Shown piece by piece: positions 1,899 to 14,161 of a stretch of 64,000 nucleotides of DNA (position 1 is the first letter of the stretch; each line of letters begins with the position of its first letter). This DNA is from Verrucomicrobiota bacterium. GTDB taxonomy: Bacteria; Verrucomicrobiota; Verrucomicrobiia; Limisphaerales; UBA11358. Under the pieces are notes generated by a model that was not told where the DNA came from, made no database searches, and saw only the letters and a list, made by a program, of their open reading frames with translations. Where the stretch lies: positions 68,302-132,301 of the forward strand of contig JBEKHY010000002.1 in NCBI GenBank assembly GCA_050012035.1, in the 5' to 3' direction. Both the position numbers and the translations under genes were made by a program.

Positions 1899-1993
1899 AA
1901 TTGCTAGTTGCGTAGAATTGTTTTGTTAATATCTTGTCAATAAGTTTAGGAATTGGAGTAAAATCGAAAGAGCAAATCTTTTTCTGCGAACAG

Positions 1994-2692
1994 ATGACCG
2001 GCAGCACCCAGAATTTTCTGAACACCGGTATATATACCGTGCCGGAAGCAGCGCGATTGAGTCGTGTTTCGACTGGCCGCATCCGGCGCTGGCTACGTGG
2101 TTACAAGTTTCGCACCAAGAAGAAGCGGGAGTATCACTCACCAGCACTATGGCATGGGCAGCTAGAACCTATTGACCATAGCCTCGCTCTGGGATTTCTA
2201 GACTTGATCGAAATCAGGTTCGTGGATGCTTTTTTAAGGGCAGGCGTTAGCTGGGCGATGCTTCGTAAAGCACACGAGCGAGGCAAGGAACTGTTCAAGA
2301 CCCCACATCCATTTTGCACACGCAGATTTAAAACCGACGGGCATGAAATTTTTGTAGAGCTCCACAAAGAAACGGGCGAGTCCAGCCTCGTTGAGATCGC
2401 CCACAATCAACATGTCTTTGTTCAAATTGTCAGTTCGTTCCTTAAGGAGTTGGAATTCGGCGGAGCTGATGTTCTACTCCGCTGGAGGCCAACGACAAGC
2501 AGACGACTCGTTGTCCTCGATCCAACGCGCAATTTCGGACGGCCCATTGTTGCTAAATATGGTGTGCCAACGGAAATTTTGTTCCGCGCCAGCAAAGCTT
2601 GCGGTTCGGTCGGAGAGGTTTCTCGTTGGTATGAAGTGCCGGAGATTGAAATAGATGACGCGGTAGAGTTCGAGCAGTCGCTCGCCGCATGA
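1994..2692 (+). CDS. DUF433-family antitoxin (HTH + DUF433, VapB45-like)
   Basis: GIYTVPEAARL N-terminal HTH, FLDLIEIRFV, C-terminal VVLDPTRNFGRPIV..GVPTE..AVEFE; stop overlaps the start of a PIN-type gene. Confidence 0.8.
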   Translation: MTGSTQNFLNTGIYTVPEAARLSRVSTGRIRRWLRGYKFRTKKKREYHSPALWHGQLEPIDHSLALGFLDLIEIRFVDAFLRAGVSWAMLRKAHERGKELFKTPHPFCTRRFKTDGHEIFVELHKETGESSLVEIAHNQHVFVQIVSSFLKELEFGGADVLLRWRPTTSRRLVVLDPTRNFGRPIVAKYGVPTEILFRASKACGSVGEVSRWYEVPEIEIDDAVEFEQSLAA

Positions 2693-3138
2693 GGTTTTTC
2701 CTCGATAATTGCCTTGCCATTCGTCATGCCCGGGCTCTCAACGAAATGGTGAAACCGGAACACAGCTTTACACACCTACAAGAAAAATTTCGACCGGACG
2801 TGAAGGACGAGGAATGGATTTGCCTACTCGGTAAACCGACCGCGCGGGAAATCGCCCAGACCAGCGCGACGTTCACGGGCAGCCTCACGGCGATTGACCT
2901 GGGTCAAAAAACCTTGAAAGCCAAAGCCACCTTCGCCACGAAGAAGTTCAGCCTGGGCGATGACTGCGCCATTGTCGTCAATGGCAAACCGGACGGGAAA
3001 TTGACCGACCTCAGGCCCGGTGAAAATCTGGCATTCAGTTACGACGACGTGAATGGCGTGAATATTGTAAACCGGATTGCTCCGGCGGGAACGGAATCAG
3101 CCACGCAAACGACGGCAGGGCAGTCGTTGCCGCAATAA
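2689..3138 (+). pseudogene. Truncated PIN-domain toxin (VapC45-like) fused to an unrelated C-terminal fragment
   Basis: MRFFLDNCL...HLQEKF...KDEEWI matches the PIN N-terminus; the expected downstream PIN motifs are absent and composition changes near 2835. Confidence 0.6.
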
Positions 3139-3285: not shown

Positions 3286-6180
3286 ATGATTTCCGTCATC
3301 GAACATCAACCCGCCGGGGCAGGCATTGATTTGGTCAAACAAGTCGAGGGAATTTTTTCACCGACGGGGCTACTGTCGCGCGCGAAGAATTTTGAATTTC
3401 GCCCGCAGCAGCAGGAAATGGCCGTGGCGGTGGCGCGCGCGTTGCAGGGGCGCGAGCATCTCGCGGTCGAGGCGGGCACCGGCGTCGGCAAATCGCTGGC
3501 GTATCTGATTCCGGCCATCCTCTTTGCGGTGGCGCAGGAGAAAAAGGCCGTTGTCTCCACACACACCATCAATTTGCAGGAGCAGCTCACGGAAAAAGAC
3601 CTGCCGATGCTCGTGACTGTGCTCGGCGCACTGACGCCGCCGGTGAAGTTCAGTTTTGCCATGCTCAAAGGGCGCGCGAATTATCTCTGCACGCGCCGGC
3701 TGCAAAAAGCGATGCAGCAATCCGGCAATCTGTTCACGTCGTCCGAGGCCGAGGAGTTGCGGCGCATCTACGCGTGGTCAAAGAAAACCCGGGACGGCAG
3801 TTTGTCGGACTTCGACGTCGAACCCGACCCGAAGGTGTGGGCGCTGGTCTGCTCCGAGCGCGGGTTGTGCTCGCCGAAAATCTGCGGGTATCCGTCTGAT
3901 TTTGCCAAGGACCACGGCGTCTGCTTTTTCCAGCGCGCACGGAACAAGATTCTCTCATCGGACGTGCTGGTATTGAACCACACGCTGTTTTTCACGCTGC
4001 TCGGCGGCATCGAGGAGGAAGTTGAGGGCGGCATTTTGTTCAAGAACGACTTTGTGATTTTCGACGAGGCACACCAGATGGAACGGGTCGCGTCGAAACA
4101 CATTGGCCTGAGCGTGTCAAGCGGCCAGGTGCGTTACGCGTTGAACCGGCTCTGGAATCCGCGCACGGAAAAGGGCCTGCTCGCCACCTTGCGCAAGGGC
4201 GCCGCGGTGAAACTCGTCGCCGATATTCTGGATGAAGCCGACAAGTTTTTTGAAAACGTTGAGGCTGCGTGTGATGAGATTCAGCGCAATGCTGGAAAAA
4301 ACAGTTTCGGCGCGACGGAATCCCGCCCCACCAGCCGGAAGTGGACGGAACTTCGCATCCGCCGCGCGGAACTGGTGCAGGACAATGTTACTTTGCCCAT
4401 CCAGCGCCTGCGCGAAGCGGTGAGCGATTTGATCAAGCTGAGCGAGGACAAGGACATCGGGCAGGAATTGATCGAGTGCAACCGGCGGCTGGCCGAGTTG
4501 CGCGACGCGGTGAAAGCGTTCCTCGAACAGAGCGCCGCCGACCACGTTTACTGGGTCGAACGCAGCGGCAAGGCGCAAAAGAACCTTTCGCTGAACGCCG
4601 CGCCGATTGACGTGGCGGAATTTCTGCGCCGGCGTTTGTTTGAGAGCGACACGAGCATCATCATGACCAGCGCGACGCTGGCGACCGTAGGACAGGCGTC
4701 ACGCCTGTCTAGCGAGCGCGCCAGCGCGAGCGGTCAAACAAAATCAGGGCAAGTTACGCCGACTTCATCGGCGCGGGCAGGCGGGACGCCCGCCCTACTC
4801 TTCGCACCGTTCGACCCGGATGCGCCGGTTGGCATCTATGGACGACATTTACCGCATTGGCGGCAATCGAGCGCGACGTATTTTGTCACGTTTCGGCTCG
4901 CTGATTCCATCCCGCAGGACAGACTCCGACAGTGGGAGCGGGAGTTGGCCGAGTGGCTGAAAAAAAATCCGGAACCGCATTCAACGGCGCAAAAAGCCGA
5001 GTTTCATGAGCGGTTCACGGAGAGGTTTCAGCGCTGGCTTGACGCGGGCATGGGTGAATGTGTGCTGCGAAGGCCGGAAATTTCCACCGTCGTGGAAGGA
5101 GCGCTGTGTCACTTTGATGGCGAGCGTTACGTCCTCGGTCATTACGTCATCATGCCCAACCACGTCCACGTTGTGGTGCGGCCCGTGCAAGGAAATCTGC
5201 TCAAAGACATCGCCCATTCCTGGAAATCTTTCACGGCGCACAAACTGAATGAAATGTTGGGCCGCACCGGGCAATTATGGCAGGACGAATCCTTTGATTG
5301 CATTGTGCGCAATGCACTGCAACTGGAAAAAATCGGATTTTACATCCGGGAAAATCCGCCAAAAGCCGGTTTGAGGCCGGGAGAGTTTAGACTGGGAGCG
5401 GGTCGTAACGTAGGGCAGGCGTCCCGCCTGCCCAATACGCGCGAAAACGCGGACAAAGAAGAGAAAGAACTTGCGCCGGCTGCGTCGGCGCGGGCAGGCG
5501 GGACGCCCGCCCTACATTACTTCATCCGCCGCGTCGGCGCGGAATCGGCCACCCAACTGCAGGTCGGCACGCCGTTCGATTACGAGCGGCAGATGAAAAT
5601 TTTTGTCGCCAAAAAAATGCCCGACCCGCGCGAAGCCGGTTACGCCGACGCCCTCGAACATTGGATCGAACACTTCGTGAAGCAAACGCACGGCAAAGCC
5701 TTCGTGCTGTTCACGAATTACAAGCTCATGCAGGAACTCGGTGAGCGGATGGAACCGTTTTTTGACAGGTTCGGCGTCGCGTGTTTCGTGCAAGGCACCG
5801 GCACGCCGCGCACGACGATGCTGGAGAAGTTCAAAGACGACGTGGACTCGGTGTTGTTCGGCACGGACAGTTTCTGGCAGGGGGTGGATGTGCCGGGCGA
5901 ATCGCTCAGCAACGTCATCATCACGCGGCTGCCGTTTGCCGTGCCCGACCATCCGCTCATCGAGGCGCGCATCGAGGCGATTGAAGCGCGCGGCGGCGAT
6001 TCGTTCCGGGAATTCTCGCTGCCGGAGGCGATTTTGAAATTCCGCCAGGGCGTCGGCCGGCTGATCCGCACGAAGACCGACACCGGCATCATCGTCGTTT
6101 TGGATAACCGGGTTTTGACGAAGCAATACGGGCAGGCGTTTCTCGACGCGCTGCCGAAATGCCCGGTGGAAATTGTGTGA
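3286..6180 (+). CDS. dinG: DinG/YoaA-family SF2 helicase with an in-frame inserted RAYT domain
   Basis: Q motif FEFRPQQ, EAGTGVGKS, KGRANYLC (FeS region), [35 protein letters not shown]. Confidence 0.93.
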   Translation: MISVIEHQPAGAGIDLVKQVEGIFSPTGLLSRAKNFEFRPQQQEMAVAVARALQGREHLAVEAGTGVGKSLAYLIPAILFAVAQEKKAVVSTHTINLQEQLTEKDLPMLVTVLGALTPPVKFSFAMLKGRANYLCTRRLQKAMQQSGNLFTSSEAEELRRIYAWSKKTRDGSLSDFDVEPDPKVWALVCSERGLCSPKICGYPSDFAKDHGVCFFQRARNKILSSDVLVLNHTLFFTLLGGIEEEVEGGILFKNDFVIFDEAHQMERVASKHIGLSVSSGQVRYALNRLWNPRTEKGLLATLRKGAAVKLVADILDEADKFFENVEAACDEIQRNAGKNSFGATESRPTSRKWTELRIRRAELVQDNVTLPIQRLREAVSDLIKLSEDKDIGQELIECNRRLAELRDAVKAFLEQSAADHVYWVERSGKAQKNLSLNAAPIDVAEFLRRRLFESDTSIIMTSATLATVGQASRLSSERASASGQTKSGQVTPTSSARAGGTPALLFAPFDPDAPVGIYGRHLPHWRQSSATYFVTFRLADSIPQDRLRQWERELAEWLKKNPEPHSTAQKAEFHERFTERFQRWLDAGMGECVLRRPEISTVVEGALCHFDGERYVLGHYVIMPNHVHVVVRPVQGNLLKDIAHSWKSFTAHKLNEMLGRTGQLWQDESFDCIVRNALQLEKIGFYIRENPPKAGLRPGEFRLGAGRNVGQASRLPNTRENADKEEKELAPAASARAGGTPALHYFIRRVGAESATQLQVGTPFDYERQMKIFVAKKMPDPREAGYADALEHWIEHFVKQTHGKAFVLFTNYKLMQELGERMEPFFDRFGVACFVQGTGTPRTTMLEKFKDDVDSVLFGTDSFWQGVDVPGESLSNVIITRLPFAVPDHPLIEARIEAIEARGGDSFREFSLPEAILKFRQGVGRLIRTKTDTGIIVVLDNRVLTKQYGQAFLDALPKCPVEIV
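4687..5515 (+). mobile_element. REP-flanked REP-associated tyrosine transposase (RAYT/TnpA-REP, Y1 HUH) cassette inserted in frame in dinG
   Basis: RHLPHW, YFVTFRLADS, YVIMPNHVH (HUH), SWKSFTA, WQDESFD, YIRENP..AGL (catalytic Tyr); REP doublets at 4687-4798 and 5410-5515. Confidence 0.9.
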
Positions 6181-6954
6181 TTTTTTCCGTAGGACAGGCG
6201 TCGCGCCTGTCACAAATCGAAGCAGAAGCGCCTTAAGGCGGAATTTCTTCAGATGGAGACAGGCGAGACGCCTATCCTACGCTCCTACGATTTTAAAATT
6301 CGCCAGGGCGTCGGCCGGCTGATCCGCACGAAGACCGACACCGGCATCATCGTCGTTTTGGATAACCGGGTTTTGACGAAGCAATACGGCCAATCCTTTC
6401 TTGATGCGTTGCCGAAGTGCCCCGTGGAGATTGTTTGAATTTTCTGTAGGACAAGCGTCGCGCCTGTCACAAATCGAAGCAGAAGCGCCTTAAGGCGGAA
6501 TTTCTTCAGATGGAGACAGGCGAGACGCCTATCCTACGCTCCTACGATTTTGAAATTCCGCCAGGGCGTCGGCCGGCTGATCCGCACGAAGACCGATACC
6601 GGCATCATCGTCGTTTTGGATAATCGCGTGTTGACGAAGCAATACGGCCAGTCATTTCTCGATGCGCTGCCGAAGTGCCCCGTGGAGATTGTTTGAATTT
6701 TCTGTAGGACAGGCGTCGCGCCTGTCACAAATCGAAGCAGAAGCGCCTCAAGGCGGAATTTCTTCAGATGGAGACAGGCGAGACGCCTATCCTACACTCC
6801 TACGATTTTAAAAATTCGCCAGGGCGTGGGCCGGCTGATCCGCACCAAGACCGACACCGGCATCATCGTCGTTTTGGATAACCGGGTTTTGACGAAGCAA
6901 TACGGCCAGTCATTTCTCGGTGCGCTGCCGAAATGCCCGGTGAAAATTGTTTGA
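6029..6954 (+). repeat. Tandem array (~257-258 bp period): dinG 3' ~150 bp x4 alternating with REP doublet x3
   Basis: dinG tail copies at 6029-6180, 6288-6438, 6545-6696 and 6803-6954; REP doublets at 6189-6280, 6446-6537 and 6704-6795. Confidence 0.93.
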
Positions 6955-6958
6955 AGCA

Positions 6959-7861
6959 CTATTTGGAAGAAGGCAACAGCAACTGAAACGTAGTCGGAAC
7001 GTTTGTACTGATCGGATTAAAAAACGGATCGTATCGCACCACTTCCTTGAAATTGCCATTGCTATCACCGCCTCGCCAAAGTTCGGTCAGCACACCGTTC
7101 TGAAATATTTCCCGCATGGTGGAAAATTTCGAGCCATTGGGTTTGATGTCCAGCTGTTGAATTATCTGGTGCTTGTATGTGCAAAATTCATCTGGAATGC
7201 CGTTAAAATCGGTATCCTTTTGCAATGTGTCTGCTCCATCATCTGAAAGTGTCCACCATTCGTCCGGCTTTCCATCGAAATTATTGTCATATTCTGAGCG
7301 CACCGCTCGGCCATGTTCAAAAAAAGTCCAATGGTCCCAATCTCCGTCGAGATTTCTGTCTTTCATAAATTCGACCAGATGCCCATCCCGGTAAATCCAT
7401 GCTTCGTCAATTTTCCCGTCCGTTGTGTGATGGTAATATGTCTTCGTTCCAAGTTTTTCCGCCCGTTGGTAAAGCAAACAAAGCATTACTCCAAGGATCA
7501 CCCCGATAACCGCGCTGAACATGATTTGACCCAGAGCCAGTTTTTTTGGTGGAACAGTTTCCGGCGGAGCAGCAGCGACGGCTTCAGTTTCGATTTGATT
7601 AATTTCCCTGGGCGATACTTGCGCATCCAGCAAGGCGATGGCGGCTTCGGCATCCGCAGCGCGAACCAGCAAACGGACGCCACCGGGAGCTGTTAAATTT
7701 GGCAACATACCGCCGGCATCGTCAGAGTTTAACCAACATTGAATTCCATGTGCTTCAAGGTTTGTTGCGGCAACTTCGGCGGCATCGTGGCTGGTGAACA
7801 CACGAATCGTTGCAGTTTTCACTTCGTTGTGAAGACCACCGTTAGTTGGTTCGGAAGCCAT
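6959..7861 (-). CDS. Hypothetical membrane-anchored protein (DUF2007-like N-terminus, one TM helix, DxNxDGxxD repeats)
   Basis: 300-aa ORF; AATNLEAHGI..GGVRLLV; DRNLDGDWD, DNNFDGKPD, DTDFNGIPD; AT-richer than flanks. Confidence 0.65.
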   Translation of the reverse strand: MASEPTNGGLHNEVKTATIRVFTSHDAAEVAATNLEAHGIQCWLNSDDAGGMLPNLTAPGGVRLLVRAADAEAAIALLDAQVSPREINQIETEAVAAAPPETVPPKKLALGQIMFSAVIGVILGVMLCLLYQRAEKLGTKTYYHHTTDGKIDEAWIYRDGHLVEFMKDRNLDGDWDHWTFFEHGRAVRSEYDNNFDGKPDEWWTLSDDGADTLQKDTDFNGIPDEFCTYKHQIIQQLDIKPNGSKFSTMREIFQNGVLTELWRGGDSNGNFKEVVRYDPFFNPISTNVPTTFQLLLPSSK

Positions 7862-8214
7862 AATCGCGCAAAGGAATAGTCTTTGGTTTCGATACGTAAA
7901 GCCAAAAACCCGACCTGCTGGCTCTGCCCGTCATGTTTTCGACACATGAGGCGCACCGAAAACCTCATAGACGAACTCATCGCACTGCCGAAATGTCCGG
8001 TGGAGATTGTCTTAATTGTCACGCACTTGACACGAAAACGTCACTTGCGAATCCGGGAACGTGGGTTAAGTTGGCAACGTCGTACAAAGCGGGTGTTGGG
8101 TATGTAGTTTGTGTGTTGCCCGACGCCCGCTTTGCTTTCAGTCCCAAGCTCCAGCCCAAAGAGGTCTTCGAGTTATCACTTTTCCCAAGGCTAAAACGCG
8201 CTATACTGGCCCGC

Positions 8215-12868: not shown

Positions 12869-13207
12869 ATGAATACATCGGCTGAAATAAAACCCTCTAA
12901 CGCGCGTCCGCTGAAATGGCGCTGGCGGCATAAAAAATTATACTTCTACCTTTCCCTTGGTTTGACAACATTCGCCGGGGCGTTACCTGGGCTGGCTGTA
13001 TTTGCCCTGCTTTTTTGCAGCCCCCTTTATGGTGCCCTAAAGCACACGCCGGTTCTGTTGGTGCTGACGGCCTTGGCCGCTTTGGTGGTAATGGTTTTTG
13101 GCTACCTCTTGGGTGCTTTAGTGACCTGTGTTTTTTTCATCATGGAAAAAATTTGTTTCCCCGAAGATACAGGCCCGTCCTCAGAGAAACATTCTGCCCA
13201 GCAATAA
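12869..13207 (+). CDS. Small membrane protein, cassette copy 1
   Basis: 112 aa with two hydrophobic segments; paralog at 13823; aagga RBS-like motif upstream. Confidence 0.7.
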   Translation: MNTSAEIKPSNARPLKWRWRHKKLYFYLSLGLTTFAGALPGLAVFALLFCSPLYGALKHTPVLLVLTALAALVVMVFGYLLGALVTCVFFIMEKICFPEDTGPSSEKHSAQQ

Positions 13208-13822: not shown

Positions 13823-14161
13823 ATGAATACATCGACTGAAATAAAACCTTCCAACACGCGCCCGCTGAGATGGCGGAACCGGCATAAAAATTTATATTTC
13901 GCACTTGGTCTTGCCGGCTGCATTGTTTTGGGGGCGTTGCCTGGGTTGGGTGCGTTTTACCTGCTCTTGGGTAACGCACACAACATCCTCAGACAAAATA
14001 CCCACTTTCAAACAATGGTTTTGCTCTTGGTGGCTTATGGGTTGCTCTTCGTTGGAATACTAATGGGTATTTTGATAGCCTGCGCATTGTTCCTTGTTGA
14101 AAAAATTTGTTTCCCCGAAGATACAGGCCCGTCCTCAGAAAAACATTCTGCCCAGCAATAA
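13823..14161 (+). CDS. Small membrane protein, cassette copy 2
   Basis: 112 aa; N-terminus similar and C-terminus (EKICFPEDTGPSSEKHSAQQ) identical to copy 1. Confidence 0.7.
   Translation: MNTSTEIKPSNTRPLRWRNRHKNLYFALGLAGCIVLGALPGLGAFYLLLGNAHNILRQNTHFQTMVLLLVAYGLLFVGILMGILIACALFLVEKICFPEDTGPSSEKHSAQQ

Follow-up and report, generated by a model that had tools for sequence, protein, structure and literature searches.

A stack of dinG gene ends and REP doublets in a Verrucomicrobiota genome, probably built by recombination with the DNA of relatives

The window analysed here is a stretch of 64,000 nucleotides from a Verrucomicrobiota bacterium of the order Limisphaerales (GenBank assembly GCA_050012035.1, contig JBEKHY010000002.1, positions 68,302 to 132,301). 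It carries a dinG/yoaA-family helicase gene whose 3' end is followed by three further dinG ends, and these alternate with non-coding doublets of repetitive extragenic palindromes (REPs). We consider it reasonably probable that this array is one stacked cassette, in which a REP doublet is coupled to a displaced dinG end of 152 bases, and that it was built by recombination with the DNA of relatives. Its location would be a hotspot where genes are added without an integrase, and the anchor of this hotspot is the 3' end of dinG.

Tandem Repeats Finder (TRF) placed a tandem array at 6029-6955 with a period of 258, 3.6 copies, and 93% matches, and the TGA stop codons of the four tails fell at 6180, 6438, 6696, and 6954 (Table 1). 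An earlier inspection of the same DNA, made from its letters alone and called the sequence-only reading here, had described four dinG ends separated by three near-identical REP doublets, and both the TRF result and the stop positions bore this out. It had also stated that each extra tail starts after a repeated CCTAC; indeed one junction, CCTAC|GATTTT, located 152 nt before the stop, was found for all three extra tails. The inserts between the tails were non-coding pieces of 106-107 bp containing inverted GTAG REP doublets, each folding as one hairpin. Tail 2 was identical to tail 1 over 87 nt and then showed 11 differences within the last 51 nt. Tail 4 is likely the oldest displaced end. A fifth dinG end (tail 5), overlooked in the sequence-only reading, was located further downstream, and its argE-dinG join was found at CGCGCTGCC, a 9-bp microhomology occurring in both parent genes.

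The array was evaluated in 7 different metagenome runs out of 24 listed, all as assembled contigs; the runs containing the stretch were peat and wetland metagenomes. Pieces crossing a junction from tail to spacer or from spacer to tail were found with 0-1 differences in all seven runs. The depth of the pieces correlated with the 31-mer multiplicity in the assembly, with r values of 0.97 (run X1), 0.96 (X9), 0.91 (X3), and 0.87 (X13), based on 7-8 pieces per run among those listed (31 of 32 used), and the source sample may be among these four runs. Depth over the shared spacer in X1 was 78.5 versus 30.6 for single-copy sequence, where 2.35-fold would be expected for three spacers, and in X9 at 21 versus 8.2. 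An artefact of co-assembled strains, which the sequence-only reading had named as its possible refutation, is therefore exceedingly improbable. The 57-contig assembly did come out of a mixed community, the whole array was spanned by no single piece, and tail-2-specific sequence was absent among the pieces listed in X1 or X3, which is uninformative since contigs drop variants; against this stand the junctions in seven runs and a depth that follows the assembled multiplicity. The array is genuine and not an assembly artefact. Diverged versions of the gene after tail 4 (window 6955-7861) were also seen in the same samples (runs X3, X4, and X20), and in X3 this gene was at half the depth of the array.

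Among the last 138 in-register nucleotides of the tails, 19 sites were variable, and 15 of them were third codon positions (binomial P = 6e-5). Variation in the REP spacers was confined to 3/101 sites, versus 12/46 third positions of tails 2-4 (Fisher P = 6e-5). The earlier claim of mostly synonymous differences between nearly invariant spacers was thus upheld, and a lack of synonymous enrichment, the other refutation it had offered, was not found. When changes were counted relative to tail 1, 17/20 occurred in the dinG of at least 5/100 relatives, versus 68/405 possible changes (P = 5e-11). The tails differed from each other at 8-12 of 138 nt and from the nearest of 100 other genomes at 10-13, and 13/19 variable sites lay within the last 51 nt (P = 0.004-0.005 against the variability of the genus). 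In agreement with the sequence-only reading, the tails are by these comparisons different functional dinG alleles and not the product of slippage plus mutation. As refinements, tail 2 is frameshifted by 1 bp, and tail 4 contains two non-synonymous changes (D>G and E>K) that few or none of 100 relatives share. No function is evident for the tails. The incoming DNA appears to be foreign, in that the tails are as divergent as the alleles of other species and biased towards synonymous changes. A purely local tandem duplication with subsequent neutral mutation would fit the one common junction and the near-identical spacers, but non-coding copies would favour neither third positions nor the alleles of relatives, and would not mutate several times faster than the spacers. 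We regard this explanation as extremely unlikely, and local duplication as the only cause is largely refuted.

The distribution of the variable sites further indicated a mixed ancestry. All three possible pairings of the four tails had supporting sites, with 1+3 supported at the 5' end, 3+4 at -43, and 2+3 at -22, -16, and -10, and the tails are therefore read as mosaics. Immediately behind the junction, tails 2 and 4 both had TTA and lacked a C, the missing C being the frameshift, and the intact TTA allele was present in 7/100 relatives. Since this junction-proximal deletion is common to both, tails 2 and 4 probably descend from one inherited junction, and the repeated independent integration events proposed in the sequence-only reading were not supported.

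We further investigated the dinG end across the genus. The end was matched in 154/163 genus genomes, and 100 of them were taken, ranked by score and by the room left on the contig. In 30/100 of these genomes, a displaced dinG tail of 24-109 bp was found within 6 kb, and in 28/90 when at least 3 kb of downstream sequence was available. Among the genomes with displaced tails were assemblies of at most 10 contigs (L032, L041, L043, L057, L073, and L129). The sequence after the dinG stop was highly variable yet recurrent across the genus, often with one convergent gene ending 2-16 bp past the stop, and the recurrent cargo families included a PIN/RHH toxin-antitoxin pair, DUF2442, ankyrin, an oxidoreductase, and others. 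Sequence behind a displaced tail in one genome was often the sequence directly behind dinG in another. The empty state was found in the relative G033 (locus L031), a different species that is 93% identical at the dinG end, in which dinG directly precedes a homologue of the gene that follows tail 4 here (6959-7861, family F3); this family was present at 21 of the 101 loci examined, which are those of the 100 relatives and of this window. An argE/dapE-like peptidase gene is the usual downstream neighbour of dinG in the genus, and truncated 5' heads of argE were found at 17/100 loci. When 33 displaced tails of relatives were compared with their own genes, 89/140 differences were at third positions, and the 5' boundaries of displaced tails recurred at -34, -42, -78, and -101. 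The dinG tree (501 nt) was poorly resolved, with tails and RAYT (REP-associated tyrosine transposase) inserts scattered on it. The idea that the gene end is replaced and the old end pushed downstream, put forward in the sequence-only reading, therefore describes a pattern that holds across the genus. Two side observations concern the same neighbourhood. The convergent cargo genes ending 2-16 bp past the dinG stop (L031-L130) leave no room for a terminator. On another contig, a 42-bp dinG tail lies just upstream of an intact argE-like gene (C27:43633-43674, L238) and is a remnant of the dinG-argE neighbourhood known from relatives.

Displaced gene ends were not limited to dinG. Crude open reading frame (ORF) calls, 2,175 of at least 200 aa, were scanned for short same-strand non-paralogue repeats. 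Downstream of the genes, 27/58 repeats ended at most 15 nt from the stop, where 1.4% would be expected (three dinG tails and a small number of shadow ORFs are counted among the 27), compared with 3/42 upstream; 18/42 upstream repeats were 5' heads. Displaced 3' ends were thus found behind about 20 other genes of the genome, among them asd, thiC, glyA, hisD, thrS, tyrS, lysS, dapL, and a metB-family gene by NCBIfam, and, tentatively named from their sequences, mfd, trpE, ligA, rtcB, and leuC. Across 27 such tails, 178/337 differences were at third positions. For some relatives, match tables suggested that ends of asd and thiC are displaced as well. In this genome, the metB-family gene, asd, glyA, and lysS are each followed by a stack of two or three displaced 3' ends. 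Confinement of this type of scar to the genus was considered and rejected, since the match tables contained an asd-like piece in G040 and thiC-like pieces in G039, both from other families.

These observations could be accounted for by three steps. DNA of a relative, containing a dinG end and whatever follows it there, would enter the cell, probably by transformation, and pair with the resident dinG through RecA, while its far end would rejoin the resident gene end at an internal point through microhomology. The outcome would be a new gene tail, an added cargo, and an old tail displaced downstream; at this dinG, the cargo would be the REP doublet and the join would lie 152 nt before the stop. 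The unit bounded by the 152-bp repeats would then be amplified to three copies through unequal homologous recombination, and later traffic would have overwritten mainly the last ~50 nt of single copies with foreign alleles, leaving mosaic tails between uniform spacers. recA, comEC, and dprA are present in the genome.

Several points weigh against this scheme. Neither a recombination event nor DNA uptake was directly observed, and comEC and dprA matched in 10-11 of 14 control genomes; because both are that common, they do not demonstrate competence. Homology-facilitated illegitimate recombination usually deletes target sequence instead of duplicating it, and many tails, at 30-45 bp, offer little length for RecA. 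A check for microhomology was possible at a single junction type (argE-dinG, 9 bp), and a palindromic repeat is located within about 8 nt of both the REP junction at -152 and one other dinG junction type. A donor search among the gene ends and tails of 100 relatives returned no exact source, the nearest matches to tails 2-4 differing at 4-6 of the last 51 nt. Displaced dinG tails were found neither in 18 loci of other families nor in 58 further loci (remaining from 80 after 22 duplicates were removed), and the scheme does not account for this limit to one genus. In 31 disjoint close pairs, selected by their N-terminal part from the 92/101 loci with enough coding sequence, the last 16 dinG codons did diverge more than the preceding 204 (0.275 versus 0.206, P = 5e-4), but the excess was modest and the window of the last 16 codons was above average in random pairs too (0.33). 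Moreover, homology-facilitated illegitimate recombination is described as rare in the accessible text of Kirchberger et al. 2017 (PMC5361080).

A circular intermediate, in which a gene tail with its cargo is excised in the donor, transferred by phage, vesicle, or transformation, and integrated by a single crossover, predicts the same anatomy. The same cargo-junction pairs recurred on distant branches of the dinG tree, as such circles would allow, and a cycle of this kind was hypothesised by Furuta et al. (accessible text of PMC2853133). It leaves the origin of the first junction unaccounted for, and no clear circle joint was seen among the contig pieces listed, where rare forms are dropped by contigs; we consider it unlikely.

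The sequence-only reading had further proposed that REPs and the RAYT drive the integrations. The dinG of this window does contain a RAYT insert, which keeps the HuH motif NHVH and the Tyr, lies about 0.8-1.4 kb upstream, and has on either side, within dinG, a GTAG REP doublet belonging to the family of the array spacers. If this RAYT cut beside a REP and joined the product to a fixed dinG site, each unit would be a separate integration. In favour of this, 8 nt separate the junction from the end of the doublet, a palindromic repeat likewise borders junction type E in relatives, tail 3 begins with the tail-1 allele right at the junction, and tails were somewhat commoner with the RAYT (7/14) than without (22/83), a difference that was not significant (P = 0.11). 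Genome-wide, however, after six shadow or paralogue-like rows were dropped and the array was counted once, a GTAG hairpin was located at most 20 nt away at 1/24 junctions, where 2.5% would be expected (P = 0.46), and that one was the dinG array itself. Most dinG junction types lacked a REP, and most displaced dinG tails in relatives followed non-REP cargo. The frameshifting deletion common to tails 2 and 4 points to one junction history, and seven further RAYT-bearing loci had no displaced tail, some of them with little downstream sequence. A REP/RAYT origin of the array is accordingly improbable. A homologous REP doublet followed a dinG tail in L032 and L085 with different continuations, for which reason we take the doublet to be an old occupant of the site, and in the array it is best read as cargo. 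A fixed REP flank was considered as the supplier of microhomology at the array junction, but the flanks of 95 REP ends were diverse, and the same continuation as at the array junction was found at only one other (C41). The RAYT insert was present at the same dinG position in 14/100 genus relatives and is likely a bystander to the array. It was also seen in 7 further loci, and the REP families that flank it differ among these relatives and loci.

A scan of 74 proteins encoded downstream, of which 20 represent families and 54 are singletons, found no integrase, recombinase, or transposase family and no restriction-modification family. Three of the genome's own integrases gave no tblastn match in 101 downstream regions. 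These results bear on the alternative that integrase-borne elements use the dinG end as their attB site and that the tails are att remnants, with the integrase mobilising cassettes in trans. Every fragment stops at or close to the stop codon, much as tRNA fragments displaced at integrase sites extend to the gene end, the 5' boundaries recur, and 10 tyrosine-recombinase matches are present in the genome; on the contig, however, the nearest integrase match is about 89 kb away. The last 51 nt of dinG were no more conserved than the preceding 87 nt, some 20 unrelated genes are followed by the same scar, and displacement also affects 5' heads; we consider this alternative very unlikely. In integrase islands and integrons, a displaced gene end marks the far border and new units enter at the front. 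The dinG loci share this displaced end at the far border and the new units at the front, but differ in that no integrase was found, the repeats are variable (24-152 bp), and no conserved core of fixed length was found.

Among known systems, insertion with long target duplication is said to have been described earlier by Nobusato et al. in 2000. The dinG array has a direct repeat of the target of 151-152 bp, above the 30 bp set by Furuta et al. 2010 (PMC2853133), inserts of 106-107 bp without a mobility gene, below the 20 kb of the same authors, and an empty site in G033/L031. In the accessible text of that paper, such insertions are found mostly in naturally competent species, the cargo lies between long, variable direct target repeats without a mobility gene, the repeats often span a stop or start codon, a relative shows the empty site, and the repeats mediate amplification, an anatomy that resembles the present case. 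In contrast to that description, the cargo of the dinG array is a non-coding REP doublet with no restriction-modification gene, the repeats are alleles of different lineages instead of one copied target, and the events form stacked arrays and are repeated at some 20 genes within a single genome. The displacement arrays formed by homology-facilitated illegitimate recombination, as far as the accessible text of PMC5361080 describes them, are similar in that a conserved gene anchors the incoming DNA, new modules are placed beside it, old parts are shifted downstream, and an integrase was not found. They differ in that the displaced parts there are functional immunity genes of toxin loci and here are non-functional ends of housekeeping genes, and in that both flanking genes leave fragments here (dinG tail and argE head). 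For the amplification step, alternative pairing during transformation would be a plausible route by analogy with Johnston et al. 2013 (PMC3784515), whose accessible text describes a repeat-bearing donor fragment that leads to unequal crossing-over and tandem duplication; those duplications are 100-900 kb and transient, whereas the dinG unit is 258 bp and occurs in several samples. The array spacer is an inverted GTAG REP dimer like those of Di Nocera et al. 2013 (PMC3733652). A cognate RAYT with HuH and Tyr near its REPs was found here, as in the REPtrons of that paper, but the junctions of this genome were not tied to REP ends, and movement or stacking of host gene ends is not among the features described in its accessible text. 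Our literature search, for which subscription papers and supplements were mostly out of reach, found no description of stacked housekeeping-gene tails in Verrucomicrobia or of a RAYT in frame in dinG.

Together, the array appears, judged by its sequence features, to resemble the known insertion with long target duplication and homology-facilitated illegitimate recombination, and its novelty would be a 'duplicated target' made of foreign alleles with no restriction gene. How genes insert with long target duplications is unexplained, and the dinG array points to recombination with the DNA of relatives. One cassette present three times with different tails indicates that the 'duplicated target' can be foreign DNA and that a restriction gene is unnecessary. 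The uniform spacers between divergent tails would serve as an internal clock, suggesting several cross-species gene-end swaps during 1-3% of non-coding change. If the reading is true, a group of peat and soil bacteria acquires accessory genes singly at gene ends, and island finders that rely on integrases would overlook this route. A bolder version, which we think quite unlikely, is that the genus runs an integron-like cassette exchange without integrase at the ends of housekeeping genes. The DinG::RAYT fusion, a helicase and an HUH nuclease in one chain, would peel off single-stranded circles of tail and cargo that re-enter by homology, and the four-tail array would be a dated record of successive cross-species gene-end swaps.

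Table 1. Coordinates of dinG, its displaced ends, and associated features (window positions unless a contig is given)
Feature	Position	Strand	Remarks
dinG/yoaA-family helicase gene	3286..6180	+	964 aa; Helicase_C_2 and DEAD domain matches
In-frame RAYT (Y1 HUH transposase) insert in dinG	4687..5515	+	Y1_Tnp at aa 619-690
Tail 1	6029..6180	+	current functional dinG 3' end
Spacer 1	6181..6287		T-rich linker, GTAG REP doublet 6189-6280 (single long hairpin), then GCTCCTA
Tail 2	6288..6438	+	displaced 151-nt allele; 1-bp frameshift near start
Spacer 2	6439..6544		REP doublet 6446-6537
Tail 3	6545..6696	+	displaced 152-nt allele; private synonymous patch -100 to -67
Spacer 3	6697..6802		REP doublet 6704-6795
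Tail 4	6803..6954	+	displaced end with two non-synonymous changes, decaying
Older cargo gene, family F3	6959..7861	-	300 aa; weak DUF2007 match; convergent on dinG
Displaced 5' head of argE/dapE-like gene	7946..7989	+	
Tail 5	7981..8010	+	30-bp dinG end fused to argE head
Displaced-end stacks on other contigs	C11:3431-4678 (L234), C6:35658-36701 (L231), C3:75096-77282 (L233), C12:80835-82601 (L235)		

The 964-aa helicase was matched by the YoaA/DinG models with scores below the curated cut-offs. REP doublets translated in frame were also seen in mutS (window about 1140-1210) and in the argE-like gene on contig C27 of this genome; in-frame REPs within repair genes are described for Opitutus terrae in the accessible text of PMC3733652. 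The interval between mutS and dinG (window 1934-3138) holds an HTH gene together with a short PIN_10 fragment that runs into unrelated sequence, and the two look like a broken toxin-antitoxin-type pair. Further downstream, two similar 112-aa membrane-type ORFs with identical C-termini (window 12869-13207 and 13823-14161) form a small tandem duplication.

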